Virus record (IMG/VR): IMGVR_UViG_3300037722_000708
Span: 6,001 to 70,000 of that record
Origin: a virus
Lineage: Duplodnaviria; Caudoviricetes
DNA length: 64,000 bases
Direction: 5' to 3' (one strand)
In this document: positions 36,340 through 37,133 of the stretch, piece after piece
Layout: every line of letters begins with the position of its first letter
Position numbering within the stretch: position 1 is the first letter of the stretch
Made by a program: the position numbers and the translations under genes
The notes under the pieces: generated by a model
What the model saw: only the letters and a program-made list of their open reading frames with translations
Database searches by the model: none
What the model was told of the DNA's origin: nothing

Positions 36340-37080
36340 TTATTCTTGTGGCATTAAGTATTGGAACAAAGCATTTCCAACACTCGGTGTTGATACCTCC
36401 TCTATATTGTTAGCTTCTTCACGCGCCATTTTGATTGCTTGCAGAAGTGTTTCTACACGCTTCAAGAGTTCTTTTTTCTCAGGGAAAGGGATAGCGGCTG
36501 AGTGTTTTGTATCTGCCCAATAACCAACAACCACGTCTTTTGTAATAAGCTGCGTTTGCGCTGGGTGGTCGGGGGTTGCATCATACAGAACAATTGGATG
36601 TTGCTCTTTGGACGTACTCTGCGTTTTGATTTCTTCAGTCTTGTAGAAACCAGATTGCTCGTCAAAATGCCATTTCTCACTTGAATCCAGAACAGGCAGA
36701 TTAGCAACGAATGTCCTAAAATCAGTCATTTGTTTTTCGAGGAAAAGCAAATAAGTAACCGGCACACCTTCAACTAAAGCGATCTCATCCACAACGATGT
36801 CTGCTTTTGCTGAGCAATTTGACCAATCTTTTCGAGCAGTCATTTCCAGGAGGCTTGATAATGAGCGTTCAACTGTCCTAAGCACATCTTGCACTTGAAA
36901 CTGTACGCGTTTTGATTGTGGCGGCTTTGTGTCGCCTTCCTCATCTTTTGGTGAGTACTTTTTGTTGAAACCATTAAAAAGATCTTGCTTTTGAACAATT
37001 TTATAGAGCTCTGAAAGCTCAGAATGTGTTTGAGATTTAATCCCTTTCTCAAGGGCTATAATTTGATTAACTTTTGCCAT
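36340..37080 (-). CDS. Conserved 246-aa helical protein immediately upstream of the tRNA-like RNAs
   Basis: AKVNQIIALEKGIKS, ARKDW.NC.AKADIVV, VPVTYLLFLEKQ, HPAQ and AIK.AREEAN motifs recall a widespread uncharacterised bacterial family. Confidence 0.85.
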   Translation of the reverse strand: MAKVNQIIALEKGIKSQTHSELSELYKIVQKQDLFNGFNKKYSPKDEEGDTKPPQSKRVQFQVQDVLRTVERSLSSLLEMTARKDWSNCSAKADIVVDEIALVEGVPVTYLLFLEKQMTDFRTFVANLPVLDSSEKWHFDEQSGFYKTEEIKTQSTSKEQHPIVLYDATPDHPAQTQLITKDVVVGYWADTKHSAAIPFPEKKELLKRVETLLQAIKMAREEANNIEEVSTPSVGNALFQYLMPQE

Positions 37081-37104
37081 TGTTTTCTCCTGTGTTGAAA
37101 GAAC

Positions 37105-37133
37105 AATATAACTCAGTTATAACGATTAATCAA
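37105..37133 (-). promoter_or_regulatory. Promoter with operator (37108-37120)
   Basis: TTGATT-17-TATATT; ATAACTCAGTTAT. Confidence 0.8.

Follow-up and report, generated by a model that had tools for sequence, protein, structure and literature searches.

The window analysed here is a stretch of 64,000 nucleotides of viral DNA (Duplodnaviria; Caudoviricetes), positions 6,001 to 70,000 of the IMG/VR record IMGVR_UViG_3300037722_000708, a 70-kb virus record with an estimated completeness of 90%. On its minus strand lies a gene for a 246-residue protein of the Pfam family DUF7873 (PF25283), and directly behind it a structured RNA with two circularly permuted tRNA look-alikes, referred to below as heads 1 and 2. 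The subject of this text is the linkage between this gene and this RNA, which recurs across phages and bacteria. In the window, the module consists of three features:

36340..37080, minus strand: DUF7873 protein gene, an open reading frame (ORF) with an ATG start encoding 246 aa (Pfam PF25283), the product being modelled by AlphaFold2 and predicted to form a homodimer
36191..36286, minus strand: tRNA-like head 1 (RNA A), from pattern search and sequence, consisting of a T-arm, a D-arm and, between them, a 7-bp acceptor stem that has an encoded ACCA and is closed by a 46-nt loop
35914..36096, minus strand: tRNA-like head 2 with two enclosing helices (RNA B), the head proper at 35965-36048, scoring 91.8 bits with the covariance model R1, whose training set included this sequence

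An earlier note on this DNA had described a conserved 246-aa protein with three motifs matching an uncharacterised family in diverse bacteria, and a stop codon that abuts RNA A with neither promoter nor terminator visible in between; these statements held up. All three motifs (VPVTYLLFLEKQ, KDWSNCSAKAD and AREEAN) are present in the translation of the ORF, which is a full-length DUF7873 protein (E 2.6e-93; 312.7 bits where the cut-off is 27; residues 1-243 aligned to positions 1-242 of the 244-position profile), an assignment repeated in a genome-wide profile search (312.1 bits), and the family occurs in several phyla as well as in phages. The end at 37133 given in that note covers the 5' leader and a promoter-like site beyond the ORF. 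The TAA stop codon (36340-36342) runs straight into a conserved 5' element of the RNA (TAATCTCAACC), T-arm 1 begins at 36286, 54 nt beyond the stop codon, and a consensus scan picked up nothing resembling a promoter or a terminator on the minus strand of the interval that separates the stop codon from the RNAs.

Both heads have the same circularly permuted order, in which a T-arm is followed by a 7-bp acceptor stem, its 3' strand leading into ACCA and the closing loop, and then by a D-arm. ARAGORN found neither a tRNA nor a transfer-messenger RNA (tmRNA) in the window. R1 is a covariance model of head 2 and its flanks aligned from 48 loci, and it also gives a weak match to head 1 (22.8 bits, 36174-36286). 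RNAalifold yields 31 base pairs, comprising the T-arm, the acceptor stem, the D-arm and two enclosing long-range helices, and all 31 show compensatory changes.

The association of gene and RNA is close to universal. Bacterial and phage DUF7873 loci, 89 in all, were scanned for T-arm motifs and complete heads: 136 of the 164 T-arm motifs outside ARAGORN tRNAs fall 0-400 nt past the stop codon, and a complete head with a 7/7 acceptor stem follows the stop codon in 86/89 loci. In the first 450 nt past the stop, heads number 3.8 per kb, compared with 0.047 elsewhere on the same strand and 0.038 on the other strand. With 6/7 acceptor pairs allowed, at least one head is present in 88/89 loci and two or more in 72/89. 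The loci come from Actinomycetota, Acidobacteriota, Cyanobacteria, Chloroflexota, one Clostridia metagenome-assembled genome and phages of at least nine host genera, and in 8/8 annotated phage records examined the gene is followed on its 3' side by an unannotated gap of 400-700 nt, often within a tRNA cluster.

That homologs elsewhere would also be followed by tRNA-like repeats, as expected of a two-component protein-RNA system, had been predicted in the earlier note, and this prediction was borne out not only by 86-88 of the 89 loci but also by a test set of 50 IMG/VR loci found via the protein, none of them used in training R1. In these unseen loci, R1 scores at least 59 bits adjoining the gene and on the same strand in 44/50, with five weaker matches of 34-47 bits; in the remaining locus the contig ends 193 nt past the gene, so that 49/49 evaluable viral loci carry the RNA. 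The prediction held from gene to RNA and, as described below, from RNA to gene (63/64 strong matches), and from this linkage we infer binding.

Moreover, the linkage does not depend on a fixed arrangement. Three IMG/VR loci of a distant sub-lineage with 32-35% protein identity (L131, L132 and L141) show the reverse order, with the complete two-headed RNA (about 5635-5893) upstream of the gene (6001-6741). In Microcoleus phage My-WqHQDG (L008), a HEARO RNA (129 bits) and its ORF are inserted at 4950-6461 between the gene and the RNA, which now lies at 6797-6939, and neither gene nor RNA has been lost despite this 1.5-kb insertion. Since the linkage outlasts both a change of order and an insertion, it points to a functional tie beyond a shared 3' untranslated region (3' UTR).

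The reverse direction, from RNA to gene, was assessed in 142 sampled bacterial genomes, namely 101 Streptomycetaceae and 41 from the Acidobacteria order that holds genome G002. One full-length gene is present in 62 of the Streptomycetaceae and a fragment only in 1 more. R1 scores in this group are two-peaked: 63 genomes have a full-length match of 63-146 bits, and all other matches score 55.5 bits or less. Pairwise comparison of coordinates places 62/63 strong matches 138-400 nt downstream of a DUF7873 gene on the same contig and strand. The exception, in genome G046, is an orphan, diverged head 2 of 84 bits without the gene (L090, G046:C11:241500-246000; RNA at 242855-243011, minus strand), upstream of which lies an unrelated opposite-strand ORF. 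The genome with the gene fragment has just a 46-bit RNA remnant adjoining it. Among the 41 Acidobacteria genomes, the gene is found in G002 only, and the sole R1 match above 60 bits is likewise in G002 (104.8 bits, 223 nt downstream). Over all 142 genomes, 63/63 full-length genes have the RNA just downstream, and 63/64 strong RNA matches lie beside a full-length gene.

Gene and RNA are a self-contained, mobile, single-copy module on one strand, usually in the order gene, RNA, terminator, and bacteria and phages alike inherit or lose the two as a unit. Neither Ro60 nor RtcB has to be present in a genome that carries the module. Comparative data could hardly show a tighter genetic coupling, so that the reading as a two-component protein-RNA module is well supported, and DUF7873 is probably, judging from the comparative sequence evidence, the dedicated protein partner that binds the conserved RNA.

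Some further features of the RNA deserve description. Past D-arm 1, within 36100-36190 on the minus strand and down to about 36140, there are two extra hairpins, ATAGA-TTTCGGA-TCTGT, which resembles an anticodon arm, and GCAAGG-agagaga-CCTTGC; counting both, head 1 amounts to a tRNA with a long variable arm in fully circularly permuted form. A decoding role of head 1 as a permuted tRNA was considered and rejected, as the loops of the hairpin at the same position in related phages vary in length and sequence and a real anticodon is unlikely; the anticodon-like hairpin is probably structural. In bacterial loci across phyla, the loop of the terminal terminator-like hairpin, 55-140 nt 3' of head 2, repeatedly shows GGCTAC or GGATAC (for example in L012, L013, L016 and L057), and this hairpin may belong to the functional RNA, beyond a terminator role.

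The protein family is large and uniform. One search returned 1857 matches, and clustering of DUF7873 at 50% identity gives 2532 clusters, of which 1439 match at E 1e-30 or better; their members are nearly all 241-256 aa long (about 245), and fused forms of greater length did not turn up in a search for them, a negative of little weight. By tblastn, homologs occur in 65 phage records, with hosts including Arthrobacter, Gordonia, Rhodococcus, Pseudanabaena, Microcoleus, Klebsiella/Serratia (jumbo phages), Vibrio, Rhizobium and Ralstonia. At least 559 relatives turned up in a scan of species-representative genomes, and they belong to Streptomyces and other Actinomycetota, Acidobacteriota, Cyanobacteria, Chloroflexota and one Clostridia metagenome-assembled genome. 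PHROGs and NCBIfam gave no family for the protein, PADLOC none at E 0.01 or better, and a profile search with DUF7873 against PDB sequences gave no match. An alignment of 57 diverse members, the most distant at about 27% identity, has 26 columns with an identity of at least 90%. Among the conserved residues outside the predicted dimer interface are E115, W137, K158, T169, H172, Q175 and the C-terminal helix motif K217-x-A-R-E-x-A-N224, and these are candidates for RNA contact or catalysis.

AlphaFold2, run on a 26-row alignment, models the protein with a predicted local distance difference test (pLDDT) of 90.2 and a predicted template modelling score (pTM) of 0.75, as four long helices, several short strands and a long beta-hairpin at residues 151-194. 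In fold searches, Foldseek found nothing in PDB or BFVD at E 0.001 or better, and a wide VIA-align search gave a top Z of 8.6 to generic helical bundles, a level counted as noise for helical models. ESM Atlas returned nothing beyond DUF7873 clusters. When two copies were predicted together, the dimer score was 0.70 compared with 0.00 for the best control, so that the prediction passed its controls; the mark was reached by 20/30 proteins solved as pairs of one chain and by 1/23 solved as single chains. Three dimer runs agree in at least 97% of contacts, with a partner pLDDT of at least 87, and the predicted interface is symmetric, intertwined and very large (about 235 contacts). The modelling thus supports a DUF7873 homodimer.

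As for transcription, a terminator-like hairpin with a T-run is found between the stop codon and head 1 in 3/86 loci, as opposed to 35/86 within 30-220 nt after head 2. In the window, the following features lie 5' of the gene, together with a related site farther along:

37087..37091, minus strand: Shine-Dalgarno sequence AGGAG, 6 nt 5' of the ATG, from sequence
37105..37133, minus strand: promoter-like site 5' of the DUF7873 gene, sigma-70-like TTGATT-17-TATATT, from a consensus scan with 9/12 matches
37107..37121, no strand: perfect palindrome TATAACTCAGTTATA, overlapping the spacer and -10 region of the promoter-like site
34811..34825, no strand: degenerate palindrome copy with 2 mismatches, upstream of rtcB

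The promoter call at 37105..37133 is a sequence match to the consensus alone. The palindrome, with up to 2 mismatches, has 14 copies in the whole window compared with 2.6 expected, and 0/100 shuffles reached 14. Copies of the palindrome TATAACTnAGTTATA span window positions 2379-60062 (for example 26244, 28749, 28773, 29590, 39266 and 45961), and those that were checked are intergenic. The recurring palindrome may be where a phage regulator binds, or it may be a promoter element peculiar to the phage. The earlier note had proposed a single operator-controlled promoter for gene and RNA A; of this, the palindrome stands as a real recurring phage motif, whereas a shared promoter is consistent with the data and unproven. 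Co-transcription of gene and RNA from an upstream promoter is the simplest reading, short of proof, and in some AT-rich loci the RNA may be driven by a promoter of its own.

If DUF7873 binds the RNA, the module could work as follows. Gene and RNA would be transcribed together, in the window from the palindrome-bearing promoter at 37105-37133, and a structured RNA of roughly 350-470 nt with its two circularly permuted tRNA look-alikes would be freed from the 3' part of the transcript, possibly aided by tRNA-processing enzymes. The intertwined, symmetric homodimer would then bind this RNA, the simplest geometry being one protomer per head, with the universally conserved K217, R220, N224, T169, H172, Q175, K158 and W137, outside the dimer interface, as candidate RNA contacts. 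The resulting particle might act like Ro60-Y RNA or SmpB-tmRNA and offer tRNA-shaped surfaces to tRNA-recognising factors. In phages, where the module is often within tRNA gene clusters, the most likely role, and here we speculate, would be to engage host enzymes of tRNA recognition or cleavage, or to divert them.

Several points weigh against the idea of a dedicated RNA-binding protein. DUF7873 has no relative of known function by structure or sequence and no recognised RNA-binding domain in the searches described above, and its members are mildly acidic (isoelectric point 5.1-6.8 in 26 members), which disfavours a simple electrostatic RNA binder. The dimer and the placement of one protomer per head are both products of modelling. 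The tight linkage could stem from shared transcription or regulation instead of a complex, and the orphan RNA of G046 may indicate that the RNA has some function alone. Finally, the encoded CCA is missing in many Streptomyces copies, so processing of the closing loop cannot be general. In the phage clade nearest the window, a discriminator base and CCA are encoded after the acceptor strand nearly always in both heads; because CCA is common there and missing in many Streptomyces, opening of the acceptor loop may be limited to some lineages.

One may argue that DUF7873 is instead an enzyme that modifies, cleaves or repairs RNA, with the linked RNA as its substrate, decoy or regulator. Near-universal polar residues outside the interface (E115, K158, T169, H172, Q175, R220, E221 and N224) are compatible with this, as are the position of the module among tRNA genes in 35/58 viral loci and the proximity of RtcB in the window and in one other viral locus. 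However, the searches returned no match to a catalytic family or fold and no fused catalytic domains, and a one-to-one, single-copy linkage is more typical of the subunit of a ribonucleoprotein (RNP) than of an enzyme with cellular substrates, so that we regard an enzyme as unlikely. The RtcB gene in question lies downstream of the RNAs:

33643..34716, minus strand: RtcB RNA ligase gene, local context (Pfam RtcB, E 3.2e-78)

RtcB was considered as a conserved partner and rejected, being found within 6 kb in 1/58 other viral loci and in 0/5 complete DUF7873 phages. Nor is there another conserved protein neighbour: the best cluster of neighbours is present in just 19/89 loci, and the Pfam families of the neighbours are mutually unrelated. 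Between the RNAs and rtcB, a 263-aa ORF (34827-35618, minus strand) shows a weak phage capsid match (Phage_capsid_2, E 4.5e-06; phrog_3437), far from the structural genes. In another of the loci, that of Gordonia phage Phendrix (L002), a tmRNA of 89 bits (gathering score 47) lies at 2072-2600 between tRNA-Asn and tRNA-Arg, where there is no deposited annotation.

Alternatively, the RNA might be a cis-acting structured 3' UTR of the DUF7873 mRNA that controls its stability, processing or translation, while the protein would have its function elsewhere and not enter a stable particle with the RNA. The common strand, the start of the window RNA at the stop codon, the rarity of terminator-like hairpins before the RNA and their frequency after it, and the acidic protein all fit such an element. 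It is hard to reconcile, however, with the RNA lying upstream of the gene in L131, L132 and L141, with the retention of both partners across the 1.5-kb HEARO insertion in L008, and with the persistence of an orphan RNA in G046; in addition, two tRNA-shaped heads with covarying long-range helices are far more elaborate than known 3' stabilisers. We consider a 3' UTR element improbable, and a protein-RNA particle the better account of these loci.

The relationship to Ro60 and its YrlA RNA requires closer attention. The downstream RNAs have the core by which YrlA-type RNAs are recognised (T-arm, closed acceptor stem, D-arm and a flank-formed enclosing helix), and the sole relevant Rfam match to window head 2 is YrlA (RF02553), at 32.6 bits; in 12 other loci this model gives 24-42 bits, and all of these scores are below its gathering score of 69. 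The DUF7873-linked RNA does not adjoin a Ro60 gene, as YrlA does. As to the protein, a Pfam scan gives DUF7873 only and no TROVE domain (PF05731), and the Ro60 fold is a ring of helical repeats with a vWA domain, about 500 aa or more in all. DUF7873 has 246 aa and a model with four long helices and a long beta-hairpin, and no Ro60 chain is among its fold matches, though a missing match cannot exclude a fold. TROVE has no match anywhere in the 70-kb phage record, nor in 5 other complete phages carrying DUF7873. It is present in 55/101 Streptomycetaceae genomes and lacking in 23/62 of the gene-positive ones, and where TROVE and DUF7873 coexist they are normally far apart, with the exception of G070 (2.4 kb). 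Many of the R1 matches that score 40-55 bits are found at a distance of about 1 kb from a TROVE gene, in G089, G099, G042, G086, G054, G088 and G069, among others, and these look like genuine Ro60-linked YrlA. Because these YrlA-like matches adjoin TROVE, the same genomes appear to contain two related classes of RNA, each with its own protein next to it.

An ordinary Ro60-dependent YrlA with DUF7873 as an accessory factor of the Ro60 particle is very improbable: the weak YrlA matches and the proximity in G070 would favour it, but every YrlA score is below the gathering score, TROVE is absent from the window phage, the five complete phages and more than a third of the gene-positive Streptomycetaceae, and where present it is usually distant and has its own lower-scoring YrlA. 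A toxin-antitoxin or abortive-infection module of the type III style, with a toxic protein kept in check by a repetitive RNA, is just as hard to credit, for although a protein gene adjoins a two-repeat structured RNA and the distribution is patchy and mobile between phages and bacteria, there is no PADLOC match and no likeness to ToxN-type nucleases, the RNA follows the gene and does not precede it behind a terminator, and the repeats are tRNA mimics, not short tandem antitoxin units.

Returning to a particle of DUF7873 and its RNA, the closest parallel is Ro60 (Rsr)-YrlA, in which a protein gene likewise adjoins a noncoding RNA with a permuted tRNA-mimic core (T-arm, loop-closed acceptor, D-arm) in bacteria and phages. 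The 7-bp acceptor stems of the DUF7873-linked RNA are also those of Mycobacterium smegmatis YrlA, which is reported to be cut by RNase P before a CCA end is added (Wang et al. 2018, bioRxiv 10.1101/312249; Chen et al. 2014, PMC4201824). The two systems nevertheless differ in protein, RNA and genomic setting. DUF7873 is a protein of 246 aa with a helical bundle and a long beta-hairpin, predicted to dimerise, in contrast to the TROVE ring of roughly 540 aa; its RNA has two heads within one larger fold, unlike YrlA, and scores 24-42 bits on RF02553; and the module occurs without Ro60, true Ro60-linked YrlA coexisting at a separate locus. Given its domain, its Rfam scores and its neighbours, the module is not a member of the Ro60-Y RNA family, and by analogy it may work in a similar way. 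SmpB-tmRNA resembles it in combining a small dedicated protein with a tRNA-like domain, a pairing that we infer here, and permuted (two-piece) tmRNA genes resemble it in that the T-arm and the 3' acceptor strand with CCA precede the 5' acceptor strand. The DUF7873 module, however, has no tag reading frame and no SmpB-like protein, its acceptor stems are closed by loops, many copies lack CCA, and Rfam tmRNA models score far below threshold on the window (9-17 bits, the permuted-tmRNA model 12-17, compared with a gathering score of 47).

Another parallel is provided by GOLLD and ROOL, large structured noncoding RNA families from the Breaker laboratory that have an unknown function and travel with phage tRNA clusters. 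The DUF7873-linked RNA resembles them in being large, structured and associated with phage tRNA clusters; to our knowledge, neither has a dedicated adjacent protein gene, and Rfam 15 gives no GOLLD or ROOL match in the window. No paper naming DUF7873 or its pairing with an RNA was found within the limited literature library covered, and the pairing appears to be new as measured against that library and Rfam 15.

Beyond the binding of one protein to one RNA, we tentatively raise the possibility of a new RNP class in which a symmetric dimer holds two tRNA-like heads. Phages might deploy it as a decoy for tRNA-recognising host enzymes, or to hijack them, with anticodon nucleases, RNase P, CCA-adding enzymes and modification enzymes as examples, and in bacteria it might serve a tRNA-centred stress response parallel to, and independent of, Ro60-Y RNA.

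Up to now, Ro60 has been the one protein linked to the tRNA-mimic Y RNAs of bacteria, and the reader of their tRNA-like domain is not yet identified. Here, an unrelated family of more than 2500 clusters goes with a tRNA-mimic RNA of its own, in a tight linkage that holds for several phyla and many phages, and the module is tractable in cultured systems such as Streptomyces and the phages of Gordonia and Arthrobacter. If binding is true, it would give a function to a large family of uncharacterised proteins, explain the gap of 400-700 nt that recurs, unannotated, in many deposited phage genomes, and represent a second, independent way to build a particle around tRNA mimicry.
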